IMG/VR virus record: IMGVR_UViG_3300001097_000003
Span: 1-64,000 of that record
DNA length: 64,000 bases
Source of the DNA: a virus
Reading direction: 5' to 3' (one strand)
The stretch's first letter is position 1. Every line of letters begins with the position of its first letter. Made by a program: the position numbers and the translations under genes. This document shows, piece after piece, positions 112 to 46,502 of the stretch. The notes below the pieces were generated by a model. That model saw nothing but the letters and a program-made list of their open reading frames with translations, searched no databases and was not told the DNA's origin.

Positions 112-117
112 TAATAT

Positions 118-2343: not shown

Positions 2344-2348
2344 TAAAT

Positions 2349-2379: not shown

Positions 2380-2400
2380 TAAATTATAGTAAATTTCTCA

Positions 2401-28803: not shown

Positions 28804-30495
28804 ATGGCAATAAATCGTTATTCCAAAGCTATAGATCAAAGTTTAGAGAAATATGTTCCTTTACCATTTCAAGAAATGATGATGGCTGGAGCTGCTATTC
28901 AACAAAGAGGTGATCTAGCACAACAACAAGTTGATCAGGTTGAAACAGGTTTAGGTTCTATTGAAGCCTATGCTCCTGCTCAAAAAGAATTTATTAGTAA
29001 TTATGTTAATGATTTTAGATCTAAAACAACTAGTCTTTTAGATAAATATCAAGGTAATACATCTGATCCTGAATTTATCAGAGAGTCTAAGAAAATAAAT
29101 ATGCAATTTGCTAGTGATCCTAGACTTAAAATAATTAAAGAAGCGAATGATAAGATTAAATTTAATGAACAAATATCTGGTAAACTTCAAGCAGAAGGTA
29201 AATTATTTATCAAACCTGAATTTAGTGGTGTAGATGAAAGAGGTAATCTTAGTGCCAATGTTGGTAATGTTCAAGCAGTTAATACTCTTGATGATTGGAC
29301 TAGATCTGGTGCAATAGCCCATGCTTCTACAGAAGAAATTGGTTCTACTATAACTAATAAGAATAATTTAAATAGATGGAGACAAACTATTGCTAGTGAT
29401 ATACAAGGTCAACAAAAACTTACTAAAGCATTTATGCAACAAGGTATGACTCAAGAAGAAGCAGCTAATGCTGTTAACTCTAGTGTACAAGGACTTGTTA
29501 ATCAATATGGTATAGAAAGTAAGGTTAATACAGGTTTATTATCTCTAGGATTACAAGAAAAAAATATGAAACAAAGTGCTTATCAATTTGAGCAAAGTAG
29601 AACAGATAGACAAGCTGAACTAGCCGCGGCTAGAGCAAATGCTTTAGAAATAGCAAAAATAAAAAGTAATAAAGGAGCGGGTTCTGTATTAACACCTTCT
29701 TTTAATGGTTTTGCAAATAGAATAGGATCTGTGGGAACAGTAACTGTTGGAGAAGAAGATGATGTAAAAATAAAACATGTATTTGGTTCAGGAACATCTT
29801 CTAATGGTATTCAAAATAGGACTATGAAAAATGAGACTGTCTCTGGTAAGATATACGATCTATCTAGTGGGTCTTACAGACCTGTAAATAAATCAATAAA
29901 TGTTATTGAGGGTACAGAAATAGGTAGTAAAAATGTGTGGGTTAGAGAAGATAATGGTGAATTAATTATGATGAATACTAATGCCACACCTAAAATTAAT
30001 TATATTAATGGTAACCCTCATATTTCCGTAAAAAGAGGTGATAAACAAGTTAATGTTCCTATAGCTGAGAGAACTGTAAAAGAATATAGTTATAATGTTA
30101 ATGCTGGACAAAAAGGTTCTGCTGCCGAAGAAGGTAAATTAAAATCGTTTTTTAAATTAGCAAGTCCAGAAGAAGCAATTGATCAGATGGGGTATTCAAA
30201 TGCGGCTTATGAAAATATGGGACAAACTAGACCTAGAAGTGTAGTTAATAGTAAAGGATCTTTAGATATAGATCTTGATTTTGTTAAGAAAAATTTAGGT
30301 GATTCTGCTTATAAATATTTTAAAGATTTAAATAATTTATCATTAACAGAACGTGATTATACTGAAGAAGAAATGGACAATATAGAGATGCTTCAAAATT
30401 ATGATACAAGAAAATCATTATGGGACAGTAAAGTATATCCTAAATATTTGAATCAAGGTAAATTAAAAAATATAGCAATAACAGACGAAGATTAA
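28804..30495 (+). CDS. hypothetical internal virion protein candidate
   Basis: 563-aa ORF between the Gly/Q/N-rich protein and the giant ORF. No motif recognised. Confidence 0.45.
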   Translation: MAINRYSKAIDQSLEKYVPLPFQEMMMAGAAIQQRGDLAQQQVDQVETGLGSIEAYAPAQKEFISNYVNDFRSKTTSLLDKYQGNTSDPEFIRESKKINMQFASDPRLKIIKEANDKIKFNEQISGKLQAEGKLFIKPEFSGVDERGNLSANVGNVQAVNTLDDWTRSGAIAHASTEEIGSTITNKNNLNRWRQTIASDIQGQQKLTKAFMQQGMTQEEAANAVNSSVQGLVNQYGIESKVNTGLLSLGLQEKNMKQSAYQFEQSRTDRQAELAAARANALEIAKIKSNKGAGSVLTPSFNGFANRIGSVGTVTVGEEDDVKIKHVFGSGTSSNGIQNRTMKNETVSGKIYDLSSGSYRPVNKSINVIEGTEIGSKNVWVREDNGELIMMNTNATPKINYINGNPHISVKRGDKQVNVPIAERTVKEYSYNVNAGQKGSAAEEGKLKSFFKLASPEEAIDQMGYSNAAYENMGQTRPRSVVNSKGSLDIDLDFVKKNLGDSAYKYFKDLNNLSLTERDYTEEEMDNIEMLQNYDTRKSLWDSKVYPKYLNQGKLKNIAITDED

Positions 30496-30496
30496 T

Positions 30497-33400
30497 ATGT
30501 CAGATAATATAAACGATTGGAAATCAAAACTTCGTTCAGGAAGCGTAGGAACAGCAGGTAGTGTGGCAGTTGATTATGATGCTCAAACTAATATAGGTAG
30601 CAGAGCTTATCAAAGTATATCTACTTCTGAAGTTGTTGATTATGATAAACTACAGAAAGAAGAAGCTAAGAAAGAAGTTATAAAGCTTAATAAAGAGTTA
30701 AAAGAAGCCAATTATACTCCTGATGATATTGTGGAAATTAAGAAATCAGAAGATTTTTGGCATCAAGTTTTTGAAACAACTAAAAAGACAATTAAAAATT
30801 CTCCTTTTGGAGGACTTCTTAATGCTGTTGAATTAGGTACTTCAGCAGGTGCTGCTATATCCGGTACTGATGTTAATGCAGCTTCTCCCCAGACCAGATC
30901 GGTCAAAGAAATCTCACAAGAATATATTGATGCTTCTAATAGAAAGAAACTATTTGATAGGGTAAAACAAAACGGAATTGTTATTCAAACAGATGGTTCT
31001 AAAACTAGATTAGAAGATGAACTTCCTTATATGGAAGATATAAGTATATTTGACAGAATATTTAATTCTGTTTCTATTAATGAAAATAAACTTGGCAATA
31101 AGAAGTTTAGCATTAATTGGACTCCTACTTCATTTGAAGATTTTGCAGAAGCTGCTAAAGAAGGTAAAACAGATGCTAGTAAAGCAGGTGTTTATCAATA
31201 CTATTTTACAAAAGATGAAGATGGTAATGATGTATTAGGTAAAGCTAGATTTAATAATGTTGATCAACTTAGAAAAGCTGGTAACATATTTCTTAATAAT
31301 TTTGGTCCAGTACCTGTTAAGTCTGGATTTTCAAGAGAATTTAGTGCTGGTTTAGGTAATGCTGGAAGAGGACTTGTAAGAAGTTTATTAAACATTGGTG
31401 AAGGTGCTTATACTTTAGCTAATGAAGCTATTACTAAAGGTGGTCTTAATACAAAACAAGACGATATAAATATAAAAAGAGTAAATAAATTTGCTGATGA
31501 TTATAGGGCAAATGATGATCTAGATAATTACGATCCTGGAAAAGGTGGTACTGCGGCTTGGTTGGGTGGAGGAATAGGACAAGGTGCGGCTTCTCTAGCT
31601 CAATTTGCAGTTACCGGTGCTGCTGCTAAAGGTATTGGTGCATTAGTTAGTCGATCATTATCTGTTGCTGGTAAATTAGATAACTTAACTACTTTTGGTG
31701 CAGGAGCTGTTATGAACTTTGGCGAAGCTTATGAATCTGCTTTAAATGCTGGTTTATCTAAACAAGATGCTTCTAAAGTTGGTATGTTAACTGGTGCTAT
31801 TAATGGTATTATAGAATCTGCTGTAGGTACAAATAAGCTTACTAACTGGTTATCTGGTGGAGGTAATAGAGTACTTGCTCAAAGAGTACTAGCTGATCTC
31901 GGAGGAGATGCATCAGAAACTTCTTTAAAAAGAGTATTAAATACTTGGCAGAAACAAGCTTCTGGTAGAATTAATCAATTATTTAACACACCAATATTAG
32001 GTAGTGCTTTAGAAGAAGGTATTGAGGAATTTTCTCAAACTATGACTCAAAAGACTGTTGAAAATTTATATGATGCTTTTATATCAGATAGTAAAGAAGT
32101 TGGTAAAGATAAATTTGGTACTCAAGCTATATCTAAACATAGTATTATGGAGGCTCTTGAAGCAGGTTTCTTTGGTGCTATATTAGGTGGTGGTATGGGA
32201 GGTATAAAACATACTAAAGAACAATATGATAAATATGTAAATAAGAAAACATCTCATGATGAACCTATATTAAAATATTTAGCTGATGGTAATAAATCTC
32301 AGGTATTAGCTATGGTAGATACTTTATTTAGTACTGGAGTTATTAATGATAATCAAAAAACTTTTTATACACAAAAGATAAATAATCTTGCTGAATTAGT
32401 AGATAAAAATCAAGGAAAATTTGCTGCGTTAGATCAATATGGTCCAGAAGTAGCTACTAAAGTAAAAGCACAAGCATTAAATGTAATTAATGGAATTGCT
32501 AGTTTAGATCAAGAATTAGAAGTATTAGCTAAGAAAGAGCAAACTCCTGAAATAATAAAAGAAATTAAAACCAAAGCGGCTGAAAGAACTTTTTATTCTA
32601 ATTATTTAGAAACAGAATTTCTACCTAGAGAAGATGGTAAAGTAAATGCTGTTGAGTTTACTAATTATTTAAATCAAGAAGAAGTATTAAATAATAAATT
32701 TAATAGATTTCAAATAGATAATGATATTACTTCTACAGAAAGTAGTATATCTAATTATGAATCTAAAGCACAACAAAATCAAGAAGATTTAGATAATATT
32801 AGAGCTAAAAAAGGTAAAGCTGCTAAAGAGATTAAAAAAGAGTTAGACCTTAATAAACTTATAAAATCAGTTTATGAAAATAAATTAAAGCAATTACAAG
32901 AATTATCTCAAAAGAAAGTAGATGAATTTAATGAAATAACTTCTGATACTTATCAAGCTGATTTAAAAGATAAAGCAGATAAAACAGAAACTGAAGATAC
33001 AGCTCCTAAAGGTCCAACCGAAACATCAGCTCCTGTTGATATACAAGAAGGTATTGAAGATAATAGTGATGTTCAATTAGATAATGAAGAAAAACTTACT
33101 TATATAGGTGATCAATTATTATCTGAAAGAGATGAAATATTAAACGAATTAGAAAATCCTGATTTAGATTCTGAAACAAAAGCAGAACTAGAATTACTAT
33201 TACAAGAAATAGATAATGAAGTAGCTACAGTAGATAATAAGTTACAAATAGCTACTCAAGATTATAAGAATCAAGTAAGTGAAATAGTTGAAAAATTAGA
33301 TGCTTTTAATGACCTAGAAGACGTTGAATTAAATCAGGCTTACTCAGCTATTAAAAAAGAAATTGAGCAGCTTATACCTGCTTATAGAGATCAAGGATTA

Positions 33401-36400
33401 GATGTATCTGAATTACAATCACTCCATACTACAGTAACTAAAATTGTATTGGAAACAAGAGACAAACTTGAATCTCAAGCTAATGATGTTATAGCTCAAG
33501 AAGAGTTTGATAATAATGCTGCTGATAGAGATAATGAACCTTTAGTAAAAGGTATTAATTTCTTTGATAGAGTAGAAAGACTTAGATTTATGAATAATCA
33601 TAAAGATTATTGGTCTGATGAAGAATTTGATAAAATATTTTTAAATACTCCCATTGAAGAAATATTATCTCAGCTTGAGATGGTTTACTATACAGCAAAT
33701 GATCTAGGAATAGTTGCAGGAGCTGTTGTTGGTAAATGGAATAATGGTACTAATATTGTTAATCCTAAAATAGTTATATCATTAAGTTATCAAGGTAAAA
33801 ACTTAGGTAATTTAAATCAGTTAGATAGTTTTACTGTTACAGATCCATCACAAGTTAATCTTAGTGAACAAGGTTTATTAAATACACAAACTAGAAATAT
33901 TAAATTAATTGCTTTATTAAAAGAAAAAGGTAGATTAGATGCTGAAACTTTAAAATCTATTGGATTTAATTTATCTTGGAATGGAGATTTCTTTGTAGAT
34001 ACTAATATAGGTAGAACTCTTATTAAAGATTTTCCAGCAGCTAAACTAGTTGGTAAGTCAGGTAAATCTTTTTACTATATATATGATAGTGTTAACAGTC
34101 TTGAAATTACTAATTTATTTAGTGACCCTAATAATGAGTTAGATAATATTCCTGCTATTCCAGAAGGATTAAAAGAAAGATATGTAGTATTGGTTAGAGC
34201 TAATAATGGGAAACTATACTGGGTTGGTTCTCAAAATCAAGTAAATACAGATATTCAAGATACTTTATATAGTTATTTATTTGAACAAGTAGAGAAACTA
34301 AAAACTATTGAAGATCCTGCTCAATTTAAAAAACTTGTAGGAGATATAAATAGATACTTAGAAAATAATATCTTTGTAGCTACTAATGATCCTACTAAAC
34401 AAAATTCTCAATTACAATTAACTACACCTACACAAACAAGTAAATCTACACAAACAAGTAAATTTTATGGACTTAGACTTAAAGGAAGTAGAAAAAAAGT
34501 TCATTTAGATAATGTTAAATATTCTAATCTAAATGATTTATTAGCTGGATTAGAACTTACAGGAATTAACTTAAGAACTCCTTTAGTTAATAACGCATCA
34601 GTAGAAACAACAATAAATACTTTATCTATTAATTTAAAACCTACTGTACTTAAAAATCCTAGTGTAAGTATTAAGATTGATGAAGATAAATTAGATTCTT
34701 TATTAGTTAATAATCCTGTAGAAGAAACCGAAATAGTTGAATTTGCAGATGCTGTGGTAACTGAAGAAGTAACTACTCCTGATATTATAAACAATACTAT
34801 ATCTGATTTATCATCATTTGATTCTGAGTTTAATAATTTAAGTAAAGAAATTAAATTAGAAATTACTAATAAAGCTCAACCTTTATTAGATCAATTGACA
34901 ACAGCTTCTAAAATTAAGAAAGCTGGTATAGCTGTTAAAATAAGAGCTATTATTAATGAATATAAAGGTCCTTCTTCAGATCCTGTATTTTCTATAGGAA
35001 CCTCTGAAGAAATTATGGACTATAATGAGGCTGTTAATTGGATTAATAAAAATCTACCAGATACTATTTCTATAGATGACATTAACAAGTTATTAGGAGA
35101 TATAAAAAATAATGGTATAACATTTGGAGCTTTTGCTAATAGTGTTATATACTTATCTACAAAAGCTGCTAAAGGTACTGAATATCATGAGGCTTTCCAC
35201 GCTATATTCAGATTATTTTCTACAGATAAACAAATACAAGCAGCTTATAATATTATATCCAGAACTAATAAACCTACTAAAAAAGATTTAGAAGATTTAA
35301 GAAATAGTTCTTCTGTATATATTAATTATAATGATACTCAACTTCGTGAATTATTTTTAGAAGAAAAATTAGCAGATAACTTTAAAGAATATAGTAAAGA
35401 CTTTAATACAAATAATCCTCTTAAATCTATTTGGAATAAAATAATTAATTGGATTAACTTTATTACTGGTAATATGGATGAAGTACAAGCTTTATTCTAT
35501 AACATTAATAGAGGTAAATTTAAAAATGCTTTAATTACTAATAATAAATTTACTAATAATATAAATGAATCAGTATTCCAAATTTATAAAAAAGGTATAG
35601 ACGAAATTAATAAAACTACTATTGTTACTTCACAACTTGAAGGTCAGGCTGTATTAGCTAATTTAACTAGAAAGTTGTTACAACTTAAAATTAATAAAGC
35701 TTATCCTAATTTAACAGATGATAAAATTATAGATATATTATTAGCTGAAAAAGCTGCTTTTTATAGTTTAGACGATAATGCTTATTATGAACTTTTCTTA
35801 GATGAAAAAGGATTGTCAGATAATGATGAGTATATTGAGGTTATGACTAGAAATTTAGAACAGAAAAGAAATATATATACATTACCTGAAAACATAGCTG
35901 CTTTAAAGAAAGATATTAAATCTAAAATATCAATATTTGATATAGACACTGATATAGATAACGAAAATAGACAAAAAGAAATAGATGATGTTGGTGAAAA
36001 CTTTGATACAGATCCTTGGTCTATTGGTGGTGAAACATCATTTAGTAAAGTACTAAGAGAATACATATCATTAGTTGTTATTAAAACTAAAGATGAATAT
36101 GGTCAAGATATTGATGAAGCTGTAGATTTTAGTAAAGTATATAGAGGATTAGTTAGAGCATTAGCTGGTATAGAAGAAGATAAAGTACTTCCTAGATTTA
36201 AAGCACTAGCTGAATTTGATGAAGATATTAATGCTGTATTTAATCAGCTTATTCTTGATCTGGGTTTAACTAATGATAGTTTATTAGATGGTCAAAACAT
36301 AACTAAAAATTATGATTTATGGAGAAAATTTGTAACAGCATTTAATAATGAAAATGTTTCCTGGTATACTATATTACAATCTAATGAACAATCTAGATTA

Positions 36401-39400
36401 TTAGAAACAAATAATAATTCTGCAAAAGATATACAGTTTAATAGCTGGTTACAAAACTATAATATTAGTTTTGAAGATGGTAAATTTGATGAAGATGTAA
36501 AAAAATCAATTAACGCAGCTGCTGATGCTGTTAACAGAAGTGAAAATGCTATTGTTAATAGTTTAGCAGAAGCTAAAAAACTATCTTCTGAAATAAGAGA
36601 ACACTTTAAAAAACTATCTATAATTTTATCAGATGGTTACATAACTTATTCTTTACTTAAAAAATCTCCTTATCTAGGATTAGATCAAGAGGCTAAAGAT
36701 TTAATTAACGCTTTCTCAGGTGTTGAAGGATTATATGATGGTGGTAATATACCTTTTATAGTTACTGAATTTAAATCCGAATACAATCCATTTATAACTA
36801 CTAAAGATGATAAAAATAAAGAAAGAGGTGCTGTATCACGTTTAAAAAATATAGCTCAACAAAACGCTTTATTTGATCCCACAATAGGTGAAAGTAGTTT
36901 TCAAAATGCTGATGGTAAAAGTGTATACTCTATTATAAGACCTTCTTTTGGTTTAGTTAAACTCAGATGGTTAAGAAACACTATTACCAGAAACAAATTA
37001 TTACGTGATGAAAAAAATAAGAAGGATGATTTTATAGATCCTTTAGAAAATGTTGTGCTTAATCATTTATTAGGACATGAAAATTTAGATATTATTATGT
37101 CTAATCTTACTCCTTCTATGATTGATGGTTATAGAATTACTAGTATTGAAGGAGATATAGGTCAAACAGAAGAAGGCGAAGGTATTACATTTGGTAAGTT
37201 TAATTCCCAAGAATATTTACTTGCTGATATGCTTATGTTTTTATCTAACAGAAAAGTATTAAGTACTATAGATGAACAAACAGGTAAGACTATAAAGCTT
37301 GGTGAAAGTGCTATGATTAATATAGATCAGATGGAAGCTTCCAATACTGGTTACGCTGTATTTTTACCTGTAGAAGAATATAATGATGTTAATGATAATG
37401 TAACAGATATTTTATTTAATTACTTAGCTCAAGAAGTTATTAGAATTAATAAAGTTAAAAAACAATTTGGTAAAGAAGGTACTACTATATGGAATGGTTA
37501 TAATGATAAATTAGGAGCTAGAGGTTTCAAACTTATGGAATTTGCTGGTTATGATTTAGATGGATACATAGATGATATTACTTCTAAAGATAATGTTATT
37601 ACTCCAGAAGATGTATATAGTGAATTATTATATGAAAAAGATAAAATAGTACAATTAATAAAAATTAAATTAGAAAAAGATATACAAGATTATACTGATA
37701 TATTAAACGCTAATAATGTATTATCTTTATTACCTAATGTTGAGTTATTAAAAAGAAATTATTTAACAGAAGGTAAGTCAGAAATGACTCCTGCTCAAAT
37801 ATCTAAATTAGTAAATAACCAATATTTAAATGCGTATATTAATACTTTAGGTATCAATAACTTATTACTAGATAACTATTCTAAGAAAGTTAAAAATACT
37901 GTTGATTGGTTTAAACGTGCTAAGGGTATTATTGGCTCTGGAGCAGATATGGGTACAGGTACTACTAGAGTTGGTGTATATAAAGAACCTTTAAAATATA
38001 TTGATGTTAAAAATTTATCAGAACTTGAAAGAGATAAATTAATAGAAGAAGAAAGATTAAGATTAGAAGATGGTTCTTTAAATGATAAAGCTAAGGCTAA
38101 ATCTTTAAATACATTTATTAAACAAATAGATAAAGGTAAGATACAAATAGCTGATGCTCAATCTTATGTTACATTAGATCATAAAATATTACAACTACAG
38201 AGATGGGGAAGATTTCCTAAGCAAGTTTCTGATATATATGATAAATTAAAACTTGGTGAAGAAATTACATGGGATGAGAAAAATACATTAGAAGATAATA
38301 ATGCAGCTTTAAATTCAACAAAGACTGTATCGTATAATGGTGATTTTTATTTTAAATTATCTGAAATAGCTTTATCTCCAAGATTGGTAGGTAAAACTGA
38401 TGAATCAGAAAATGTAATACTTGATGATCAAGGAAGACCTGCTGAAGCAAAAGAAGGATTTGAATACTTATTTAATAAGTATATTAGTATGTTAGATCAA
38501 GGTGTAGATCAGGCTTTACCTGAATCTGCTTCTAAAATGGCTACAATAAGTCCTGCTGAATATGCACAAGATGGTAAATTTGATTTTACTGGTTCTGTTA
38601 TGGAATTAGAAAATAAATTTAAGAGATTGCAAGTTGAAACTCCTTCTGGTAAAAGATCTATTATCCACGGTACACAATTAATTCAATTAGTACATAGTGA
38701 ACAATCAGATAATTTAGAAATAGATTTTAAATATAACTCTGATATAAAAACTGTAGGTCAACTTAGGGAACTATATAGAGGGTTACTAGCAGATAATCGC
38801 TTAGAGGGCTTTAAAACAGCTCTGGCATATATGAGAGATCCTATATCTGGAGAAGTTAATTCAAAAGAGTTAACTAAAAAGTTTTATCAAACAATAACTG
38901 AGTCTGGTTCAGATGAAGTATTATCTAATTTCTTTAGTCCTGATCCCATTACTGGTGAAAGACAATTCAATTGGAATTTAGGGCCTATAGTTAATAAAGC
39001 TGAACAATTATTTTTATCTCATTTTAGTAAAGGAGTATTATCTCAAAAAGTTCCAGGACTTAAAGTATCTTTAGTATCTGATGCAGGTATATTAGTTAAA
39101 GATGCTAAAACTGGTAAAATGAGATCATTAGCTCATATGCAATTAGATGATGATGGAAATTATTATTCTGAATGTTTATTACCTCCTTTTGCAGAAGAAT
39201 TACTCGGTAAAAATCCTAGTGATGCTGATGTACAAAAGGTTTTAAAAATGTTTGGAGTACGTATTCCTACTCAGGATAAACACTCTATGATTAGTTTAAA
39301 AGTAGTAGGATTTCTTCCTATGGAATATGGTTCTGTTGGTATATTTCCTAAAGAAATTGTATATCTATCAGGAGCAGATTTTGATATTGACTCTGAATTT

Positions 39401-42301
39401 ATCCATACTCCAGATTTTTATGTGGAAGATAATGGAAGAATTAGATTATATGGTGAAGCTTCTACTGATGAAAATAAATATCAAGAGTATATAACTTGGA
39501 ATTTAAAGAATAATAAATTATTAAAAAATAGAATAAATACTTTAGGTTCGTTAGAAGCTGCTTTGTCTTCATTAAATATGCCTACTACCGCATTAGAATT
39601 TATAGTAAACAATACTATTAATGTAGGATTAAATAATAATCTTATGTTAGAAGCTCAAATTAAATTTTTAACTAATGATTATGTAAGAGAAAGAGCAGCT
39701 ATTATTCCGTCATCATTATCTTCTATTAAAGATGTGGCAGATATTGTTATGGAAGCTTTAAATATAGATCAAAATCAATCAATATCTCCTAATACTCCTT
39801 TAGCTAGATATAATGCTAATAGAAATAATATGGAAGGTAAAGATGGTATTGGTCCAGTTGCATTATCTAATGTAACCCATGCTTTATTATCTACTTATGA
39901 TCAGAAGTTATTTTCTGAGGTATCTTTACCTACTATTAATGGTAAATTAGCTAATGGATTTGGAGGTATTTATACTATAGATTCTGATAGTAATAGAAAG
40001 AATGATAATATATCTACTCTATTATCAGCTATGACCGATAATGCTAAGGAACAATTAGCTAAGTTATTAACTTTAACATTTAATTCTAGAACAGCTGATG
40101 CTAATACTTTGCCAGTAGCAGCTTATATGTTGTCTGTAGGATATAGTATGGAAGAAACAGTATTGTTTATAAACCAACCTACTATCAGAGCATTTATTAC
40201 TAACGATCAAAATATATATAAAAAATTAGAAGAATTACAAACAGAACTAGAAGTACACTTAGGTGTTTCTAAAAATAAAAAAGATGCTTATAAATTAGCC
40301 TATCAAAAATTTAGTGCTCAAAACATTAAACCTTTTACTTCTGAAAATTTAATTTCTTCATTAAATGAAAATGATTTAGATATATATGATCTTCCTCATA
40401 TAAGATTAGCGGAATCAATATTTAATCAGATGCAATTACAAGCTGGTTATAATTCTAATGTATCTGCATTAATGTCTTTGAATAAAGGTGTTAAATCAAC
40501 ATTTGATGATAATTTAAGATTAGAAACTGTATTAGATTCTTTACAATTAAATTTTTTATATACATTTATTAATGATGATGTACTTACCTATGATGATTTA
40601 ATAACTAAATTATTAGAAGAAAATTATATTAGAGTTGTAGGTAATAAAATATATAAAGATATTAATATGCCTGTATTCGAAACAGATGATAATATTAATA
40701 AGACACCATTTGATGCTAGAGAAACTTTATTAAACGATCCTAATACAATACAAAATATTATAATCTATAAAAAGATTATGGATACTTCTAAGGAATTCTT
40801 CCTTATGAATACTCCTGTATTTAAAAAACTAAGAGGACTAGTTAATACTAATTCTAAAAATTTAATTCCTTATTTTATGAATAAGGCTAATGAAGCTTAC
40901 TTAGAAACTAATTTTCCTGAAAAATATCAAGAGCTTATAACTGCTAAAGATAACGCAGCTTATATGATTCATAAATCTGGAAATAATTCTATAGGTAGAG
41001 ATTTATTTAAATTAAAAAAAGATCCTGACTTTAGAAACAATCTTTTAATCAAGATGTTGTCATTAAAACAACCTAGTAGTTCAAGTAAGGTTATTAGTAT
41101 TGAATTTCCAACTAGAATAAAAGCACAAGGAGATTTCTATACAAATGTAAATAATGCTTTCAAAGAGTTATTTATGAATCCTAAAACTACTGATTTTGCT
41201 AGGAAATTATATTATTATTCTTATTATAAAGACGGATTACAATTTAAAAACAAATCGTTTATTAATACTATTCCATCATGGGTATTTAGAGATGTATCTA
41301 AATCTTTAGATAATTTAAATAATGATTTTAAAGATACAAATTATGAAAGTTATACTTCTTTAAGTAGTAATTTAACTAATAATATTATAGATATGTTAAC
41401 TTCATTAGCTGTATTAGAAAATCATCATGATAAATTACAATATATAGGAATTCATCCTGATATTAAAGCTAATTTAAAAATTACAGATAATGAAAAACAT
41501 ATTAATTATGTTATTAAATTTGATATATTAAAACAAATAGATATTACTAGTGCTGCATCATTTGAAGCATCATTAAAAGAGTTACATAAAATTACAGGCG
41601 ATAATAAATTAGTAGCTTTATCTAAGAAGGGTATACCTTATAACTTAGCAGTATATGAAGGTGCTACTAACCCAGTTACTCAAGAAACTGTTACAAGAGG
41701 TAGATTAATAGAATCTGTTAAAGCTTTTATTGGTAATGGAGAACTTAAAACATTAACATTAGAAGAACTTGTTGATTTCTATATGGATAAAGGATTCTTA
41801 CCTAAAGCAATAGAAGTTAATTATAGTAAAGTAAGAGTTATTGAAGATACAGCTTTTGATTCAACTATTACAGATGTACAGTTTATAAATTCTTATTCAA
41901 GAGTAGTTAAAAATATAGATAAAGAAAAACAAATATATAATGATAATGAACCAAAGGTAAGTATTGTACCAGATACTAATGAAAATTTGGATAATACAGA
42001 AAATGATGTAAATTATCAAAAAAATCAAACTAGTTCAGACGCTGGTATTTTAGCTTCTGAACAAACAGTTAGAGATTTAGCTGCTACAATATCTGATAGA
42101 ATAGGTTTTGATGTTGATGAACTGCCTTTTCAAAAAGTACAAAATCTTTTGGAAAATTCAGAAAATAATAGTATCTTTGATGATATATATATATCAATGC
42201 AAAAAGCAATAGATGATTCTTTTGATAAAGAAGATAAATTAAATAAACTAGATTCAGATGTAGATAATTTTACAGATGATTCTAATAACCCATTATGTTA
42301 A
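30497..42301 (+). CDS. giant multidomain protein: candidate virion-packaged RNA polymerase (double-psi beta-barrel, ADFDID) fused to a zincin-like HExxH module
   Basis: Uninterrupted 3934-codon ORF in an AT-rich genome. Domain order: Gly-rich hydrophobic N-terminal region, long acidic coiled coil, HEAFH at residue 1564, then a beta-prime-like RIPTQDKHS...(33 aa)...GADFDIDSEF segment with the first Asp at residue 2961. Confidence 0.75.
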   Translation: MSDNINDWKSKLRSGSVGTAGSVAVDYDAQTNIGSRAYQSISTSEVVDYDKLQKEEAKKEVIKLNKELKEANYTPDDIVEIKKSEDFWHQVFETTKKTIKNSPFGGLLNAVELGTSAGAAISGTDVNAASPQTRSVKEISQEYIDASNRKKLFDRVKQNGIVIQTDGSKTRLEDELPYMEDISIFDRIFNSVSINENKLGNKKFSINWTPTSFEDFAEAAKEGKTDASKAGVYQYYFTKDEDGNDVLGKARFNNVDQLRKAGNIFLNNFGPVPVKSGFSREFSAGLGNAGRGLVRSLLNIGEGAYTLANEAITKGGLNTKQDDINIKRVNKFADDYRANDDLDNYDPGKGGTAAWLGGGIGQGAASLAQFAVTGAAAKGIGALVSRSLSVAGKLDNLTTFGAGAVMNFGEAYESALNAGLSKQDASKVGMLTGAINGIIESAVGTNKLTNWLSGGGNRVLAQRVLADLGGDASETSLKRVLNTWQKQASGRINQLFNTPILGSALEEGIEEFSQTMTQKTVENLYDAFISDSKEVGKDKFGTQAISKHSIMEALEAGFFGAILGGGMGGIKHTKEQYDKYVNKKTSHDEPILKYLADGNKSQVLAMVDTLFSTGVINDNQKTFYTQKINNLAELVDKNQGKFAALDQYGPEVATKVKAQALNVINGIASLDQELEVLAKKEQTPEIIKEIKTKAAERTFYSNYLETEFLPREDGKVNAVEFTNYLNQEEVLNNKFNRFQIDNDITSTESSISNYESKAQQNQEDLDNIRAKKGKAAKEIKKELDLNKLIKSVYENKLKQLQELSQKKVDEFNEITSDTYQADLKDKADKTETEDTAPKGPTETSAPVDIQEGIEDNSDVQLDNEEKLTYIGDQLLSERDEILNELENPDLDSETKAELELLLQEIDNEVATVDNKLQIATQDYKNQVSEIVEKLDAFNDLEDVELNQAYSAIKKEIEQLIPAYRDQGLDVSELQSLHTTVTKIVLETRDKLESQANDVIAQEEFDNNAADRDNEPLVKGINFFDRVERLRFMNNHKDYWSDEEFDKIFLNTPIEEILSQLEMVYYTANDLGIVAGAVVGKWNNGTNIVNPKIVISLSYQGKNLGNLNQLDSFTVTDPSQVNLSEQGLLNTQTRNIKLIALLKEKGRLDAETLKSIGFNLSWNGDFFVDTNIGRTLIKDFPAAKLVGKSGKSFYYIYDSVNSLEITNLFSDPNNELDNIPAIPEGLKERYVVLVRANNGKLYWVGSQNQVNTDIQDTLYSYLFEQVEKLKTIEDPAQFKKLVGDINRYLENNIFVATNDPTKQNSQLQLTTPTQTSKSTQTSKFYGLRLKGSRKKVHLDNVKYSNLNDLLAGLELTGINLRTPLVNNASVETTINTLSINLKPTVLKNPSVSIKIDEDKLDSLLVNNPVEETEIVEFADAVVTEEVTTPDIINNTISDLSSFDSEFNNLSKEIKLEITNKAQPLLDQLTTASKIKKAGIAVKIRAIINEYKGPSSDPVFSIGTSEEIMDYNEAVNWINKNLPDTISIDDINKLLGDIKNNGITFGAFANSVIYLSTKAAKGTEYHEAFHAIFRLFSTDKQIQAAYNIISRTNKPTKKDLEDLRNSSSVYINYNDTQLRELFLEEKLADNFKEYSKDFNTNNPLKSIWNKIINWINFITGNMDEVQALFYNINRGKFKNALITNNKFTNNINESVFQIYKKGIDEINKTTIVTSQLEGQAVLANLTRKLLQLKINKAYPNLTDDKIIDILLAEKAAFYSLDDNAYYELFLDEKGLSDNDEYIEVMTRNLEQKRNIYTLPENIAALKKDIKSKISIFDIDTDIDNENRQKEIDDVGENFDTDPWSIGGETSFSKVLREYISLVVIKTKDEYGQDIDEAVDFSKVYRGLVRALAGIEEDKVLPRFKALAEFDEDINAVFNQLILDLGLTNDSLLDGQNITKNYDLWRKFVTAFNNENVSWYTILQSNEQSRLLETNNNSAKDIQFNSWLQNYNISFEDGKFDEDVKKSINAAADAVNRSENAIVNSLAEAKKLSSEIREHFKKLSIILSDGYITYSLLKKSPYLGLDQEAKDLINAFSGVEGLYDGGNIPFIVTEFKSEYNPFITTKDDKNKERGAVSRLKNIAQQNALFDPTIGESSFQNADGKSVYSIIRPSFGLVKLRWLRNTITRNKLLRDEKNKKDDFIDPLENVVLNHLLGHENLDIIMSNLTPSMIDGYRITSIEGDIGQTEEGEGITFGKFNSQEYLLADMLMFLSNRKVLSTIDEQTGKTIKLGESAMINIDQMEASNTGYAVFLPVEEYNDVNDNVTDILFNYLAQEVIRINKVKKQFGKEGTTIWNGYNDKLGARGFKLMEFAGYDLDGYIDDITSKDNVITPEDVYSELLYEKDKIVQLIKIKLEKDIQDYTDILNANNVLSLLPNVELLKRNYLTEGKSEMTPAQISKLVNNQYLNAYINTLGINNLLLDNYSKKVKNTVDWFKRAKGIIGSGADMGTGTTRVGVYKEPLKYIDVKNLSELERDKLIEEERLRLEDGSLNDKAKAKSLNTFIKQIDKGKIQIADAQSYVTLDHKILQLQRWGRFPKQVSDIYDKLKLGEEITWDEKNTLEDNNAALNSTKTVSYNGDFYFKLSEIALSPRLVGKTDESENVILDDQGRPAEAKEGFEYLFNKYISMLDQGVDQALPESASKMATISPAEYAQDGKFDFTGSVMELENKFKRLQVETPSGKRSIIHGTQLIQLVHSEQSDNLEIDFKYNSDIKTVGQLRELYRGLLADNRLEGFKTALAYMRDPISGEVNSKELTKKFYQTITESGSDEVLSNFFSPDPITGERQFNWNLGPIVNKAEQLFLSHFSKGVLSQKVPGLKVSLVSDAGILVKDAKTGKMRSLAHMQLDDDGNYYSECLLPPFAEELLGKNPSDADVQKVLKMFGVRIPTQDKHSMISLKVVGFLPMEYGSVGIFPKEIVYLSGADFDIDSEFIHTPDFYVEDNGRIRLYGEASTDENKYQEYITWNLKNNKLLKNRINTLGSLEAALSSLNMPTTALEFIVNNTINVGLNNNLMLEAQIKFLTNDYVRERAAIIPSSLSSIKDVADIVMEALNIDQNQSISPNTPLARYNANRNNMEGKDGIGPVALSNVTHALLSTYDQKLFSEVSLPTINGKLANGFGGIYTIDSDSNRKNDNISTLLSAMTDNAKEQLAKLLTLTFNSRTADANTLPVAAYMLSVGYSMEETVLFINQPTIRAFITNDQNIYKKLEELQTELEVHLGVSKNKKDAYKLAYQKFSAQNIKPFTSENLISSLNENDLDIYDLPHIRLAESIFNQMQLQAGYNSNVSALMSLNKGVKSTFDDNLRLETVLDSLQLNFLYTFINDDVLTYDDLITKLLEENYIRVVGNKIYKDINMPVFETDDNINKTPFDARETLLNDPNTIQNIIIYKKIMDTSKEFFLMNTPVFKKLRGLVNTNSKNLIPYFMNKANEAYLETNFPEKYQELITAKDNAAYMIHKSGNNSIGRDLFKLKKDPDFRNNLLIKMLSLKQPSSSSKVISIEFPTRIKAQGDFYTNVNNAFKELFMNPKTTDFARKLYYYSYYKDGLQFKNKSFINTIPSWVFRDVSKSLDNLNNDFKDTNYESYTSLSSNLTNNIIDMLTSLAVLENHHDKLQYIGIHPDIKANLKITDNEKHINYVIKFDILKQIDITSAASFEASLKELHKITGDNKLVALSKKGIPYNLAVYEGATNPVTQETVTRGRLIESVKAFIGNGELKTLTLEELVDFYMDKGFLPKAIEVNYSKVRVIEDTAFDSTITDVQFINSYSRVVKNIDKEKQIYNDNEPKVSIVPDTNENLDNTENDVNYQKNQTSSDAGILASEQTVRDLAATISDRIGFDVDELPFQKVQNLLENSENNSIFDDIYISMQKAIDDSFDKEDKLNKLDSDVDNFTDDSNNPLC
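34428..34463 (+). repeat. perfect 18-nt tandem duplication inside the giant ORF
   Basis: CTACACAAACAAGTAAAT occurs twice in tandem (34428-34445 and 34446-34463), encoding STQTSK twice. Confidence 0.9.
35186..35200 (+). other. HExxH (HEAFH) zincin-like metal-binding motif in the giant ORF
   Basis: In-frame CAT GAG GCT TTC CAC, in the context AAKGTEYHEAFHAIFRLF. Confidence 0.5.
39248..39391 (+). other. RNAP beta-prime-like double-psi beta-barrel catalytic segment
   Basis: MFGVRIPTQDKHSMISLKVVGFLPMEYGSVGIFPKEIVYLSGADFDID, compared with bacterial beta-prime NRAPTLHRLGIQAFEP...NADFDGD. The DFDID codons are at 39377-39391. Confidence 0.7.
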
Positions 42302-42302
42302 T

Positions 42303-45300
42303 ATGGCAAGTAATAGTTGTAGTATAATTCCAGTAGTAAGTAATAGTGAAGGTATATCTGTAGACAGCATATTGTTTACAGATTTGTTGTCTTATACAAA
42401 TAATAATAGAACAGAAGCTAAGAGAATTTATTTAGCTTCTAAATCTGTTGATCCTAATGATTATGAATTAGATGATAATAGTGAATTGAATGTTAAAGAT
42501 GCTGTTAAGGTATTTAATAATGTATTAAATCCAGATCCTGTAAGAGACTTCATTACCAAAAATAAAATAAAAACTCATGGAAGGGATCTTTTTAAATCAT
42601 ACGCAGAATTAAGAAAGTTACGTGCTCAATTTCCTGATTATACTTTTACTGTTATACAAAATAGTGGTGGATATAGTATTGATTATTATAAAAATATTTT
42701 TAATAATATAAATAAAGAAACAGTAGAAAATAATTTAACCGAGCTTTCTAGATTTAATAATTTAAATGCTAAAGAAGTATTAGAAATTCTTTTGAATGAA
42801 AATAATAATAAATCTACTAGTAAAGTTATTAAATTATTATTAGATAATGTAGATAAGATTAATTTTGTTAAATTTGATGTTAATAGATTAAACGAAAATG
42901 TATTAGGTAATTATAATTCAGCTACTGGTAATATCACACTAAATAAGCGTTTAGAATATGTAGATAAAAAGAAATGGCATGAAACTATATTACATGAATT
43001 AATCCACGCATATACAGTTAACGCGTTAGGTGCACCTAAGTCGGAAGCTGAGATAAACTTTGATAATCAGATTACTAAATTATATGAGTCTGTTAAGAAT
43101 TCGAGTATGACCAATGATTATGGACTTACTAACAAATTTGAATTTGTAACTGAAATATTAACTAACCCTGAATTTATTAATGAACTAGGTATTAAAAAAC
43201 CAACATTATTAAATAAATTAATTGATGCTTTTAGACAATTATTAGGATTATCTCCATTGGTTGAAAAAGTAGATATAACAACTGTTCAAAAATACTTATT
43301 TGATTTTATTAACATAAGTACTCCTGAGTTAGTAAATTTTGATAATGTAGATTTTAATAGTAAAATAAGTAAAAAGACTGTAATAGGAGAAATAGATAGT
43401 TATTTAAAACAAGCTAATAAAGATAGAAATTACGTATCAGAACTTGAGAAAGCTATTCTAACTATACATAAGCGTATAAAATATGCAGTTGGTAAAACTA
43501 ATTTAGAAATTAAAAAAATACAACAGAACATTAGATCTATTGAACGTGATTATAATAAATTAGCAAGAGAACTTGTAGATGATTATATTGCTTCAAGAGG
43601 TGGTGTATATGACAAAGGATATGAAAAAAGTAAAGTTTGGAAAGATTTAATAAATGATTTAGAAAATACTTTAAAACCTTTACAAGATGAAATAGAAGAT
43701 TTAGAAAATTACAACATAATGTTAAATCAAGATCTTGTAGATATAAATGATACATCTGATTTAAGATTATTTGAAATAGAGTATGCTAACGCAGCTTTAC
43801 AACAAATGAATGAAATTGAAAATAAAGATTACGATCTTAATAATCCTTCTGATATAGAAGATTTATCTAATGATTATAATTTTTTACATCTATTCTCTAA
43901 GTTTAATGGTATGTATCATGTAAAAGGGAAATCAGATATATTAATTAATAAGTTAATTAATCAGTTTATATCTCCTTTTATTAGTCAAACAGCAACAAAT
44001 AATCTTAATTTATCAGGATTAGATGAAAAAACTCTAGATATATCTGACCTACTTAAAAATAATCCAGATGTATCTATTTTAGAAAAATATTTTAGAGGAT
44101 TAGGAGACTATCCAAGATTAGAATCACAATTAATCCATTCTTTAACTGTAGAAGGTTCTAAGAAGGCTAGATCAGACTCTGAGAAAACAGGTGAAGAAAT
44201 ATTAGAACATAAAAGAAAGTTGATTAAATGGGCTAAAAAAAATAAATTAGCTAATATGTTTGGTATAGTAGATTTAACTAAAGTTTATAATTTATTATCT
44301 GATGTAAATCATTTAGATAGATTAGATTTAGTTAAGTCTTATAATAATGAGTATTATAATACTGTTAATAAATATATTAAACAAAGATATTCAAGTACAG
44401 CAACACCCGCAGAAATAGGAAATGCTAAGTCTTGGCTTAAAAAGAATTATTATACACCCACTAAAGATAGTAAATATAATAATCCTAAGTTTGAGTATAT
44501 AAAATCTGTTGGTAATGAAGAATTATATGATTTTTATAAATATTTTCAAGAAAAAGTAGCTGAAACATATGATAAATTACCCGAATTTGTTGGATTAAAA
44601 AATAAAGAAAAAATACCTACTTTAATTAAAGATGTAGTATTTCAATGGTATGGATTAAGTCCTTTAAATATTATGAAATCTATTAAATTAGGAGTAAAAA
44701 CTATGTTATTTGGTTCAGGAAGTCCTGTATTTTATAATGAAGATGGAGAACTAGAAAATAATTTTACTATTAAAGAACTTACTCAAGATCAAGTTAGATT
44801 AAAAATGATTGGTGAGATTGAAGCTAATAAAAAATCTAATGATCTAGGTGAAGTTTTATTTCAATTCTATTCCTTTGGTAATGAGTATGAACAAATGACT
44901 AAGGTATTACCTATAGCTAGACTTGTTCAAAATATTATTGCTAAAAAGAATTATGGAGAAAAAGGTATATCAGGAGAACAATCTCGAATAAATGCTGCAT
45001 TTGAATTATATATAGATAAAACCATTACTAAAACAGATACACAAGATCAAATAGAATTTAAATTACTTACTACTAAAATATATGATAATGATGGAAAAGA
45101 AGTAGGTGAAAATAAATTTTATTGGTCTACTCTAGTACAACATTTATTAACTTATACTCGTGTATTACAATTAGGATTTAATGTTTTATCAGCAATAGGT
45201 AACTTAGCAGCAGGTATAACATCCAATATAACAGAAGCTTTTGGTGGAAGATATTATGGTAAACGACAATATTTAACAGGACTAGGTATATATTTAGGAG

Positions 45301-46502
45301 ATGCTTTTAGTCAACGAACTAAATGGTTACAACCAGACGTTAATATGACTAAGGTTGAATTATTATCTAATCTTATACAACCATTAGATGAAATTGCCGA
45401 GTATGATATTAAAAAAGAGGTTAAAGTAAAAAGCAGTAACATAGCTGTTAAAGGATTTAATTATATATATGATCAAACATTTATATTACAACAATTAGGT
45501 GAAGATACTATTCATAAATCATCTATGGTTGCTTATTTAATTTCTCAAAAGATAACAGGTACGGATGGTAAACAACATAGTTTGTGGAGCTTGTTTTCTG
45601 TAGAAAATGATAGATTGGTATTTAATTCAGCATTGACTGGTACTACAGATGTAAATAATTTTATTAAAAATCATAAAAATACTATCATAAATATTAACTC
45701 TAAAAATCAAGGAGATTATTCTAAAGATAATTCATCTGTACACAGTAATGAAATTACATATAAAGTAGCTATATTATTTAGAAAATGGTTACCAGCTATG
45801 ATCGCCGATAGATTCGAAGGTAAAAGATATAATTATAAAACAGGAAATTATGATGAAGGATTTTTTATAACTGGTAATAGAGTAATATCTAAAACTTTTA
45901 CAAATAGTTATTTAGGTGTTATGAGTTTGATTACACAAAATCAAAATATGTTACTTAATAAAAAAGATATAACTAAAGATGAGATGATAGCTGCTAGAAA
46001 AATAATAGGAGATTTAATTCAAATCATAACTTTTACTTTTTTACCATTATTAATTATGCCTCCTCCAGAAGACGATGATGATTATGCTTGGTGGTTACCT
46101 AATGCTTTACAGGATTGGTTTTATAATATTATTAATTTAGGAATATATAAAAATAAATCTTCGTTTAATAAGAGTAAATCACCATTAACTATGTTTGTTA
46201 AATATATGTCAGATCATTCTAATAGAATAGCTACAGATAGATTACAATTTTATAATGTATTTAAATATCCAGATATTATATCTAGGATGGCTTTAATACA
46301 GACATTAAATGAATTAGGTCAAGCTTTTTATTCTTTAGGTGAAGTAGCTTTTGGATCAGAAAAGAATAAAGTCATTACTAAAGGAATTAATAAAGGAAAT
46401 CCTAAAGTTCTTAAAGAAGTTAGAGATATAGTTCCTTATTGGAAACAATATGATAAAGTATATAAACAAACTAAGAAGAAAGCAGAAGATCTTCAAAAAT
46501 AA
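42303..46502 (+). CDS. giant HExxH-motif protein with C-terminal transmembrane helices (ejected cargo candidate)
   Basis: About 1399 aa if translation starts at ATG 42303 (MASNSCS...). The track ORF starts at 42276, inside the preceding gene. HELIH lies at 42993-43007 (WHETILHELIHAYTVNALG). Hydrophobic helices include LQLGFNVLSAIGNLAAGITSNI and IQIITFTFLPLLIMPPP. Confidence 0.65.
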   Translation: MASNSCSIIPVVSNSEGISVDSILFTDLLSYTNNNRTEAKRIYLASKSVDPNDYELDDNSELNVKDAVKVFNNVLNPDPVRDFITKNKIKTHGRDLFKSYAELRKLRAQFPDYTFTVIQNSGGYSIDYYKNIFNNINKETVENNLTELSRFNNLNAKEVLEILLNENNNKSTSKVIKLLLDNVDKINFVKFDVNRLNENVLGNYNSATGNITLNKRLEYVDKKKWHETILHELIHAYTVNALGAPKSEAEINFDNQITKLYESVKNSSMTNDYGLTNKFEFVTEILTNPEFINELGIKKPTLLNKLIDAFRQLLGLSPLVEKVDITTVQKYLFDFINISTPELVNFDNVDFNSKISKKTVIGEIDSYLKQANKDRNYVSELEKAILTIHKRIKYAVGKTNLEIKKIQQNIRSIERDYNKLARELVDDYIASRGGVYDKGYEKSKVWKDLINDLENTLKPLQDEIEDLENYNIMLNQDLVDINDTSDLRLFEIEYANAALQQMNEIENKDYDLNNPSDIEDLSNDYNFLHLFSKFNGMYHVKGKSDILINKLINQFISPFISQTATNNLNLSGLDEKTLDISDLLKNNPDVSILEKYFRGLGDYPRLESQLIHSLTVEGSKKARSDSEKTGEEILEHKRKLIKWAKKNKLANMFGIVDLTKVYNLLSDVNHLDRLDLVKSYNNEYYNTVNKYIKQRYSSTATPAEIGNAKSWLKKNYYTPTKDSKYNNPKFEYIKSVGNEELYDFYKYFQEKVAETYDKLPEFVGLKNKEKIPTLIKDVVFQWYGLSPLNIMKSIKLGVKTMLFGSGSPVFYNEDGELENNFTIKELTQDQVRLKMIGEIEANKKSNDLGEVLFQFYSFGNEYEQMTKVLPIARLVQNIIAKKNYGEKGISGEQSRINAAFELYIDKTITKTDTQDQIEFKLLTTKIYDNDGKEVGENKFYWSTLVQHLLTYTRVLQLGFNVLSAIGNLAAGITSNITEAFGGRYYGKRQYLTGLGIYLGDAFSQRTKWLQPDVNMTKVELLSNLIQPLDEIAEYDIKKEVKVKSSNIAVKGFNYIYDQTFILQQLGEDTIHKSSMVAYLISQKITGTDGKQHSLWSLFSVENDRLVFNSALTGTTDVNNFIKNHKNTIININSKNQGDYSKDNSSVHSNEITYKVAILFRKWLPAMIADRFEGKRYNYKTGNYDEGFFITGNRVISKTFTNSYLGVMSLITQNQNMLLNKKDITKDEMIAARKIIGDLIQIITFTFLPLLIMPPPEDDDDYAWWLPNALQDWFYNIINLGIYKNKSSFNKSKSPLTMFVKYMSDHSNRIATDRLQFYNVFKYPDIISRMALIQTLNELGQAFYSLGEVAFGSEKNKVITKGINKGNPKVLKEVRDIVPYWKQYDKVYKQTKKKAEDLQK

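Follow-up and report, generated by a model that had tools for sequence, protein, structure and literature searches.

Giant RNA polymerase (RNAP) genes, encoding proteins of up to ~6,000 amino acids (aa), have been described as a distinguishing feature of the crAss-like phage group (Crassvirales review). In Cellulophaga phage phi14:2, the genes for gp67 (1,797 aa), the RNAP gp66 (2,180 aa) and gp65 (1,421 aa) follow one another in this order. gp66 transcribes the early genes, and its self-inhibited structure raised the question of how the virion RNAP (vRNAP) of crAss-like phages is activated. The orthologues of gp65, gp66 and gp67 have each been assigned to the virion; certain phages have them fused into one huge polyprotein, which is probably cleaved, and one of them carries a zincin-like protease that might activate the RNAP (Drobysheva et al). 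RNAP orthologues have been identified by mass spectrometry in virions of phi14:2 and of crAss001, and the latter contain gp47, gp49 and gp50. Here we analyse a stretch of 64,000 nucleotides (nt) from a virus record (IMGVR_UViG_3300001097_000003, positions 1 to 64,000; hereafter the window), in which a single open reading frame (ORF), the giant ORF, spans 3,934 codons. We conclude that it very probably encodes the virion-packaged, host-injected DNA-dependent RNAP of a divergent crAss-like phage, joined in one chain with the cargo protein that precedes it. The sequence comparisons themselves establish the homologies, the order of the domains, the conserved motifs, the synteny and how the fusion is distributed across the family.

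Results

The giant ORF encodes a homologue of the phi14:2 virion RNAP

The giant ORF starts with ATG and ends with TAA. The window is 71% A+T, which from base composition gives a stop probability of 0.084 per codon and random ORFs of ~12 codons on average. An earlier note on this DNA had pointed out the stop-free 11.8-kb frame; its 3,934 codons were verified, and the probability that such a frame arises by chance is ~1e-151 (log10 ~ -151). The same uninterrupted ORF, of 3,946-3,951 aa, is present in two IMG/VR relatives (contigs L006 and L007; 62-64% identity), and we conclude that the gene is real. The chain divides into four parts, namely an N-terminal extension, a zincin-like domain, an RNAP body and a variable tail (Table 1).

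Table 1. Features of the giant ORF and of the adjoining partner gene. Positions are those of the window.
Feature	Position (nt)	Residues (aa)	Strand	Remarks
Giant ORF, putative fusion of cargo protein, zincin-like domain and virion RNAP	30497..42301	3,934 plus stop	+	
N-terminal extension	30497..34978	1-1494	+	Counterpart by position of phi14:2 gp67 / crAss001 gp47; clade-specific; predicted all-alpha
Gly/Ala/Ser-rich conserved segment	31544..31906	~350-470	+	G+A+S 40-50%
Acidic long-helix region	32444..33496	~650-1000	+	D+E up to 36%; net charge down to -15 per 50 aa
Zincin-like (gluzincin-type) module	34979..35596	~1495-1700	+	HEAFH at nt 35186-35200; E1622-E1623-x-x-A-D at nt 35360-35377
RNAP body, homologue of phi14:2 gp66 / crAss001 gp50	35597..41341	~1701-3615	+	BLASTP, clade profile
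Catalytic ADFDID motif, predicted second double-psi beta-barrel	39374..39391	2960-2965	+	Aligned with gp66 1361-DFDID-1365
Variable C-terminal tail	41342..42298	3616-3934	+	Identity 18-49%; last residue Cys3934
gp65 homologue ('RNAP-associated protein'), separate partner gene	42303..46502		+	Canonical crAss zincin HELIH; single Cys near N-terminus

The earlier note had also seen a beta-prime-like motif string at aa 2918-2970. We located this string (MFGVRIPTQDKH...ADFDIDSEF) at aa 2918-2968 (nt 39248-39400), with RIPT at aa 2922-2925 (nt 39260-39271) followed by the ADFDID motif. A tblastn search with the C-terminal 1,734 aa retrieved 'putative RNA polymerase' genes in 75 crAss-like records, with E values down to 1e-16. 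By BLASTP, aa 2894-3231 aligned with residues 1295-1655 of gp66 (E 8e-11), placing GADFDID over GSDFDID, and a second collinear block joined aa 2429-2634 to residues 850-1041; the match to crAss001 gp50 reached E 8e-22. We then searched all PDB sequences with a profile restricted to the clade (the window, two IMG/VR relatives and four database matches). The single significant entry was 6VR4 chain A, which is gp66 (E 2.5e-24), in one alignment spanning gp66 residues 859-1818.

This alignment is collinear from the first double-psi beta-barrel (DPBB1) to the trigger loop and sets DFDID on DFDID. The reading of the ORF as a crAss-like virion RNAP homologue, put forward in the earlier note with a DPBB profile match as its proposed check, stands because the match covers the published landmarks of gp66 (Connector, 1095-1238; DFDID, 1361-1365; bridge helix, 1529-1559; trigger loop, 1598-1636). 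Within the clade alignment, the G, D, D and D residues of the catalytic motif and the whole of RIPT are invariant, and the fourth position of DFDID is Ile, the form reported as typical of crAss RNAPs (Ile or Val in the family motif). The protein thus appears to share with gp66 a collinear body of DPBB1, Connector, DPBB2, bridge helix and trigger loop, and it is almost certainly a two-barrel RNAP homologous to gp66. Other searches returned little: phmmer with the whole protein against PDB gave only a spurious match to BstEII, Pfam and PHROGs yielded no meaningful match with either the whole protein or ten 500-aa segments, and a simpler homologue search of the RNAP region found only 4 relatives.

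The RNAP is fused to an upstream cargo protein in most close family members

gp66 differs from the giant ORF product in being a separate protein of 2,180 aa without an HExxH module, and the two are only ~24% identical. Relative to gp66, the giant ORF carries about 1,700 extra N-terminal residues, made up of the extension and the zincin-like domain. The offset of the alignment puts the N-terminus of gp66 near giant-ORF residue ~1,580-1,600, so the extra ~1,600 residues fall in the position of the upstream cargo gene. The earlier note had taken the enzyme itself to be much larger than its homologue; its size comes instead from an in-frame fusion with the upstream cargo gene and not from an enlarged polymerase. 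The giant ORF represents the fused state 'protein A + zincin + RNAP'.

With aa 1441-2440 as the query, an exhaustive HMMER search retrieved 386 cluster representatives (clusters defined at 50% identity), 143 of them at E <= 1e-30; a simpler homologue search with aa 1381-2400 found zero relatives, and it was the exhaustive search that revealed the family. Its proteins are unnamed or 'hypothetical' metagenomic entries from contigs of 27-129 kb. Most representatives have 3,500-5,700 aa (median 4,210), and the query segment aligns 1,300-2,900 residues into them. Architecture counts and conservation mapping were based on the best 150 of the 386 representatives. The order extension, zincin, RNAP was found in 105 of these, and another 16 carry a second HExxH module 750-1,500 aa past DFDxD, corresponding to a gp65-type protein that is fused as well, which brings the fused ORF to 121 representatives. 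Across the same set, conservation is concentrated in a sharply bounded core (aa ~1495-3615) that is similar to gp66 in length and sets in precisely with the HEAFH module; the three closest sequences show the same step. Outside this core, the first 1,490 aa and the final ~320 aa are common to a few percent of the family only.

In three family contigs that we inspected (L017-L019), a muzzle gene is followed by two to three mid-size genes, the giant ORF and a gene of ~1,450-1,570 aa; in the fully fused case no large gene comes after the giant ORF. A more distant lineage shows another arrangement (L001, 5429-13564), in which the N-terminal module is a separate 1,423-aa gene and there is no HExxH module. 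Short proteins consisting of 'zincin + RNAP only' were considered as a true split state and rejected; they are probably truncated gene calls, since their cluster-mates have 4,400-5,000 aa. Runs of N (scaffold gaps) in L003 (~1300-1460) and L005 (~400-480) split giant ORFs into shorter genes (P0001 and P0002), and the database lengths of some relatives are therefore below those of the true ORFs.

Taken together, these comparisons point to a general design in which a cargo protein with a C-terminal zincin is followed by the RNAP and then by a third cargo protein. Lineages appear to differ in the points at which the chain is cut into genes and in the zincin copies retained, L001 and phi14:2 having no zincin at the junction.

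A conserved zincin-like module lies at the junction

The HEAFH motif, which the earlier note had placed at aa 1564, occupies aa 1564-1568. Because His is rare in the giant ORF (0.7% of residues), only 0.014 HExxH motifs would be expected by chance. We measured conservation in an alignment that had not been selected on the motif. H1564, E1565 and H1568 were invariant in 145/145 aligned relatives, E1622 was present in 147/147 and E1623 in 146/147, A1626 was found in 145/147, and position 1627 was Asp or Glu in 142/147. The active-site residues are invariant in fused and split proteins alike. The second motif, EExxAD, lies 54 aa downstream of HExxH, and an HExxH followed by a Glu-bearing helix is the signature of gluzincins, or of the metallopeptidase (MPTase) core (Iyer et al).

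An AlphaFold2 (AF2) model of the module, built from a 41-sequence alignment, reached a mean predicted local distance difference test score (pLDDT) of 85.5 and a predicted template modelling score of 0.67. The predicted elements are a backing helix, three short strands, the HExxH helix and a long helix with the two Glu, a topology that matches the MPTase core of Iyer et al. HEAFH falls on model helix 108-121 (pLDDT ~96) and E1622/E1623, which may supply the third metal ligand, on model helix 160-183. Foldseek searches of BFVD matched the model to large proteins from numerous crAss-like phages, at E 4e-7 to 4e-4, and, weakly, to LPD proteins of the polyvalent-protein type (E ~5e-3), an N4-like vRNAP (0.48) and an M48 peptidase (1.0). 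Among Pfam families, the sub-threshold themes were Tox-MPTase4 (3/41 members, best E 2e-4), M41 and DUF5700.

Sequence profiles linked the module to two kinds of crAss protein. First, a hidden Markov model (HMM) of the module matched the C-terminal end of crAss001 gp47 with 80 bits (residues 2069-2334; YHEAFHVVF at 2157 of 2,341 aa) and, with 89 bits, the end of the protein (2,474 aa) encoded just before the RNAP in Dulem virus 41. Second, hhalign joined the module to the second HExxH module of the fully fused relatives (94.6%, E 7e-8; 1.6% for a reversed-sequence control), the latter to the gp65-type domain (98.7%), and the module to an extended gp65-type profile (83%, E 9e-6) in the correct register; a first comparison of the module with the gp65-type zincin, made with shallow profiles, had given 4% and is superseded by the deeper ones. 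The HMM found nothing in gp66, in crAss001 gp50 or in the IAS, cr112 and jaberico RNAPs, and an HExxH module is absent from both gp66 and gp67 of phi14:2. A degenerate copy at the N-terminus of gp66 or gp50 was also considered and rejected, as the HMM detected none with its filters off.

On this profile evidence, the HEAFH module is homologous to the C-terminal domain of crAss001 gp47 and appears distantly related to the annotated 'zincin protease' domain of crAss-like phages. The suggestion of the earlier note that a metalloprotease-like site shares the chain with the polymerase is hence strengthened: the site belongs to a strongly conserved zincin-like module. Its conservation and remote homologies make an active zincin-like metalloenzyme the probable interpretation.

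The N-terminal extension is clade-specific and fast-evolving

When gene order in the window is set beside that in phi14:2, crAss001, jaberico, cr11_1 and Dulem, the extension takes the place of the cargo protein encoded immediately upstream of the RNAP and behind the muzzle gene and the small cargo genes. It is free of Cys and fast-evolving, being only 21-57% identical to its close relatives, and the region occurs in 3-5% of family representatives. Searches with a clade HMM and with jackhmmer converged on nine extension sequences only, and neither retrieved gp67 or gp47. Part of it (aa 200-920) is homologous to the separate 1,423-aa gene upstream of the L001 RNAP gene (E 5e-50). AF2 predicted only helices for aa 201-920, with a pLDDT of 50, too low for a fold search.

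Many of the Gly, Asn and Glu residues in the Gly-rich segment are invariant within the clade, and its G+A+S content is 50% over aa 351-400, falling to 40% over aa 401-450. The segment shows weak collinear similarity to the Gly-rich region of gp67 (BLASTP E 0.94). With this value and the outcome of the clade HMM and jackhmmer searches, homology of the extension to gp67/gp47 could not be shown; the N-termini of gp47 and phi14:2 gp67 are homologous to each other (E 2e-8). The Gly-rich region described in the earlier note is real, in contrast to the membrane-active character attributed to it: the most hydrophobic 19-aa window of the region has a Kyte-Doolittle mean of 1.26, there is no classical transmembrane helix, and we rejected a transmembrane or membrane-active N-terminal region on these grounds. 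As for the long acidic coiled coil of the same note, the acidic stretch was recovered (D+E peaks at 36% in aa 851-900) and is the least conserved part of the protein. AF2 predicted very long helices in aa ~620-920 with moderate confidence in places (pLDDT 60-88) and low confidence overall.

A distant giant ORF (L018, 7001-19396; P0021) has AAA_33 and Zeta-toxin-like Pfam matches in its extension, so that extensions can carry other enzymatic domains. These matches, from one distant member, fit a variable, 'polyvalent' N-terminal region.

Terminal cysteines mark the ends of consecutive cargo proteins

Giant chains of the family are nearly devoid of cysteine, which accounts for 0.045% of their residues (at the median, one Cys in ~4,200 aa). 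The product of the giant ORF has two, C2893 (nt 39173-39175) and its last residue, C3934 (nt 42296-42298). A Cys lies within the last 10 residues of 128/142 long relatives (0.6 expected) and within the last 3 residues of 108/142 (0.2 expected). gp66 also has a Cys at its extreme C-terminus: in phi14:2, the only Cys of gp67 is its last residue, those of gp66 are at positions 3 and 2179 of 2,180, and the only one of gp65 is at position 3. The corresponding positions in crAss001 are 2339 of 2,341 for gp47, 5 and 2404 of 2,412 for gp50, and 5 for gp49. This pattern recurs in jaberico, cr11_1, cr107_1 and Dulem virus 41. A Cys was found 0-5 residues from the end of the RNAP chain in the window and in L003-L007, L017 and L018, and the large protein that follows contains a single Cys, at position 3-6 counted from its likely N-terminus; for the window this is Cys6 of the gp65 homologue (nt 42318-42320). 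The terminal pattern is also seen in L002, L008/L012, L011 and L013-L019.

Junctions that are fused do not contain these residues. There is no Cys in aa 1-2892 of the giant ORF, none between DFDxD and the second zincin in 16/16 fully fused proteins, and zero in the whole of one fully fused protein (P0024; 4,553 aa). The exception is L001, whose upstream junction is without a Cys pair.

C2893 is found in YYSEC, 68 aa upstream of DFDID. About 40/131 family members carry a Cys at 60-79 aa before DFDxD (S-E-C versus S-E-V/I), and this residue is thus lineage-variable.

crAss001 virions contain structural disulfides. Neither the crAss001 virion paper nor the gp66 preprint mentions cysteines of the cargo proteins, and our literature search found nothing on them. 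The simplest reading of the pattern would be that an intermolecular disulfide, or a shared metal site, links consecutive cargo proteins, and that a gene fusion is the covalent (peptide-bond) equivalent of the disulfide. We tentatively propose that the cargo proteins might form a disulfide-linked train, the C-terminal Cys of one being joined to the N-terminal Cys of the next; by the same token, and with the same reserve, Cys3934 could pair with Cys6 of the downstream gp65-type protein. On this view the linked proteins would pass through the tail in one set order, to be freed from each other by the reducing conditions of the cytoplasm and/or through cuts made by the zincin domains next to both junctions.

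The downstream partner gene encodes a gp65 homologue with a second type of zincin

As in the case of gp66, the RNAP gene of the window is found where the structural operon ends, and it precedes the gene for a gp65 homologue. The downstream protein matches phi14:2 gp65 by BLASTP (E 4e-22), HExxH site included, and its gp65-type domain has Pfam matches to SprT-like (25.5 bits, cut-off 25.6), M85, MPTase-PolyVal and M76. The earlier note had missed this canonical crAss zincin. A mechanical list of ORFs starts the gene at 42276, which overlaps the giant ORF by 26 nt. An ATG at 42303 forms the same TAA-T-ATG junction as the start of the giant ORF (30493-30499) and yields the N-terminus MASNSC..., similar to that of relatives (MASNIC..., MSNFC...), and is probably the true start. 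HELIH lies at aa ~240 (numbered from 42276) and is of a different zincin subtype from the HEAFH module. As this second domain is close to the N-terminus, zincin-like domains flank both cargo junctions, the first shortly before the extension/RNAP boundary, the second shortly behind the RNAP/gp65 boundary.

The window shows a crAss-like late structural operon

Gene content identifies the window as the late structural operon of a crAss-like phage: the large terminase, portal and major head protein belong to crAss PHROG families, the muzzle protein matches Pfam crAss_MUZ, and further virion proteins match crAss families. The major head protein is 43-49% identical to Crassvirales head proteins over its full length. 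After the virion genes come two mid-size Cys-free genes, the giant ORF, the 1,400-aa gene and a strand switch. At the DNA level we found no close phage genome (a megablast of the 3' part against phage records gave zero matches).

The strand switch, at ~46500, coincides with a reversal of GC and AT skew; genes on the + strand extend to 46502, those on the - strand begin at 46553, and the late operon ends there. No tRNA genes were found in the whole 64 kb. A Cys-free ORF of 1,407 aa (11197-15420), without PHROG or Pfam match, lies in a stretch richer in G+C (0.37-0.40 versus about 0.24-0.35 elsewhere) and could be a gene for a tail fibre or receptor-binding protein that was exchanged horizontally. 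In one of the family contigs (L019), a reverse transcriptase (RVT_1; 22280-23230) is encoded near the operon end.

Discussion

In crAss001, gp47 (2,341 aa, 'RNAP subunit', a virion cargo protein) ends in the same YHEAFH...EE module, its gene lies behind those for muzzle and cargo proteins where the structural operon ends, and gp50 is homologous to the RNAP body. crAss001 differs in that gp47 and gp50 are separate proteins encoded on opposite strands, each with terminal cysteines, and the N-terminal ~2,000 aa of gp47 are without detectable similarity to aa 1-1494 of the giant ORF. In Intestiviridae (p-crAssphage-type phages; cr11_1, cr110_1, cr107_1 and jaberico), a protein of ~2,000 aa, annotated as 'RNAP associated protein fused to zincin protease' or 'peptidase', is encoded directly upstream of an RNAP gene of 4,100-4,400 aa. 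They share with the window a cargo protein with a C-terminal zincin immediately upstream of the RNAP, and RNAP-bearing ORFs of >4,000 aa. In contrast, their zincin is of the gp65-type subtype, their RNAP is joined to the downstream protein instead of the upstream protein being joined to the RNAP, and the junction upstream of the RNAP retains a Cys...Cys pair.

Two more distant phages offer comparisons of design. gp50 of coliphage N4 (3,500 aa) likewise unites, in one giant injected protein, an RNAP, a zincin-like HExxH domain and an N-terminal portion that has been linked to ejection. Its polymerase is T7-like (single-subunit, right-hand fold) and not two-barrel, and its zincin is C-terminal to the RNAP; the likeness is one of analogous design and not of polymerase homology. 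gp96 of Thermus phage P23-45 (5,002 aa) combines a two-barrel vRNAP and a metallopeptidase in a giant ejected structural protein. This protein differs in being the tape-measure protein of a siphovirus, with an N-terminal RNAP and transmembrane domains, and is also likened by design and not by sequence.

In the course of events that we propose, the capsid would carry the giant protein as cargo. The protein would leave through the tail in a partly unfolded form, before or along with the DNA, refold in the cytoplasm and there transcribe early genes without host RNAP. By analogy with its orthologues, and given the position of the gene in the operon, packaging as cargo and injection for early transcription are very likely. 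The N-terminal extension would most plausibly serve ejection or tethering and not catalysis. As to the zincin-like domain, its location exactly where other lineages split the chain makes cutting of the chain or removal of an inhibitory segment, after delivery or during maturation, its most plausible role; cleavage at or near the junction itself is a possibility that we regard with some doubt.

Several points weigh against this reading. Packaging, injection, polymerase activity and cleavage are all extrapolated from orthologues that are only 24-30% identical, and the two DPBB folds are those expected from homology to the solved gp66 structure. The link of the extension to gp67 and gp47 is one of position, sequence similarity not being detectable. 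The zincin fold of the HEAFH module found no support in a Foldseek search of PDB (best E 1.7, no zincin), and its Pfam zincin matches are all sub-threshold. Finally, the N4 vRNAP is packaged unprocessed in spite of its zincin domain, and a protease-like domain therefore does not imply self-cleavage.

The last point leads to the strongest rival, a fused cargo-zincin-vRNAP that is never cleaved and acts as one multidomain ejection protein like N4 gp50, which we rate as a serious possibility falling a little short of even. Its zincin-like domain would target peptidoglycan, host defence proteins or other cargo, or serve encapsidation or regulation. This is consistent with the N4 vRNAP, in which the zincin MPTase is always present, the protein is packaged full-length and the region is needed for encapsidation, and with peptidoglycan digestion, which was considered for the crAss zincin by Drobysheva et al. 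The dominance of the fusion among the best family members (121 of 150) indicates that a single chain is viable, and no conserved cleavage site was identified. On the other hand, the module sits exactly at the gene boundary of other lineages, being the last domain of both crAss001 gp47 and the Dulem virus 41 protein, and its active-site residues are invariant whether fused or split; these facts fit a junction-related role and are compatible with the rival too.

It is unlikely, by our estimate, that the HEAFH module is not a peptidase and represents a structural metal site or another HExxH enzyme (of the alpha-KG-HExxH type or another hydrolase). The Foldseek and Pfam results above would allow it, and the N4 paper notes that HExxH also occurs in enzymes other than proteases. 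The HExxH and the Glu-bearing helix 54 residues downstream are nevertheless invariant, the AF2 topology (helix, three strands, HExxH helix, Glu helix) matches the MPTase core, and the profile-profile links (83-95%) lead to the gp65-type domain, which itself hits SprT-like, M85, MPTase-PolyVal and M76. Moreover, metallopeptidases are the only recurrent theme among the weak Pfam matches.

A polymerase that is not packaged, and is expressed post-infection for middle or late genes, is very improbable. P23-45 and some other phages have both virion and non-virion two-barrel RNAPs, and sequence alone proves no packaging; set against this, the late structural operon ends with the gene, which has the cargo/muzzle genes on one side and the gp65 homologue on the other, an arrangement shared with phi14:2 and crAss001, whose orthologues were detected in virions, and the RNAP is fused to a cargo-type protein and has in common with the cargo set a terminal Cys and a depletion of Cys. 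That the giant ORF is an artefact of assembly or frameshift joining two real genes can be practically dismissed, for, easily distorted as gene calls in related contigs are (by the N-run gaps of L003 and L005), the same ORF recurs in two independent contigs and in >100 cluster representatives from many samples, with conservation continuous across the extension/RNAP junction.

The earlier note regarded the architecture as uncharacterised. This does not hold, as giant and fused RNAP genes and a zincin-bearing RNAP-associated protein have already been reported, and about 386 metagenomic cluster representatives share the architecture. The giant ORF is another divergent member of the known giant crAss RNAP genes and by itself adds little. 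We found no explicit description in the literature that we consulted of the gp47-type HEAFH domain as a zincin paralogue in a conserved unit with the RNAP. That the HEAFH domain and the RNAP are one conserved unit in a family of about 386 clusters gives the question of crAss vRNAP activation a concrete target in the HEAFH and EE residues. Domain boundaries can be read from the three cargo genes, which in nature occur fused, split or lost, and this should help in the design of expression constructs. The cysteine pattern, which is possibly undescribed, suggests a simple hypothesis for cargo order and cohesion; if true, it would provide a simple rule by which giant proteins are ordered and held together during ejection.

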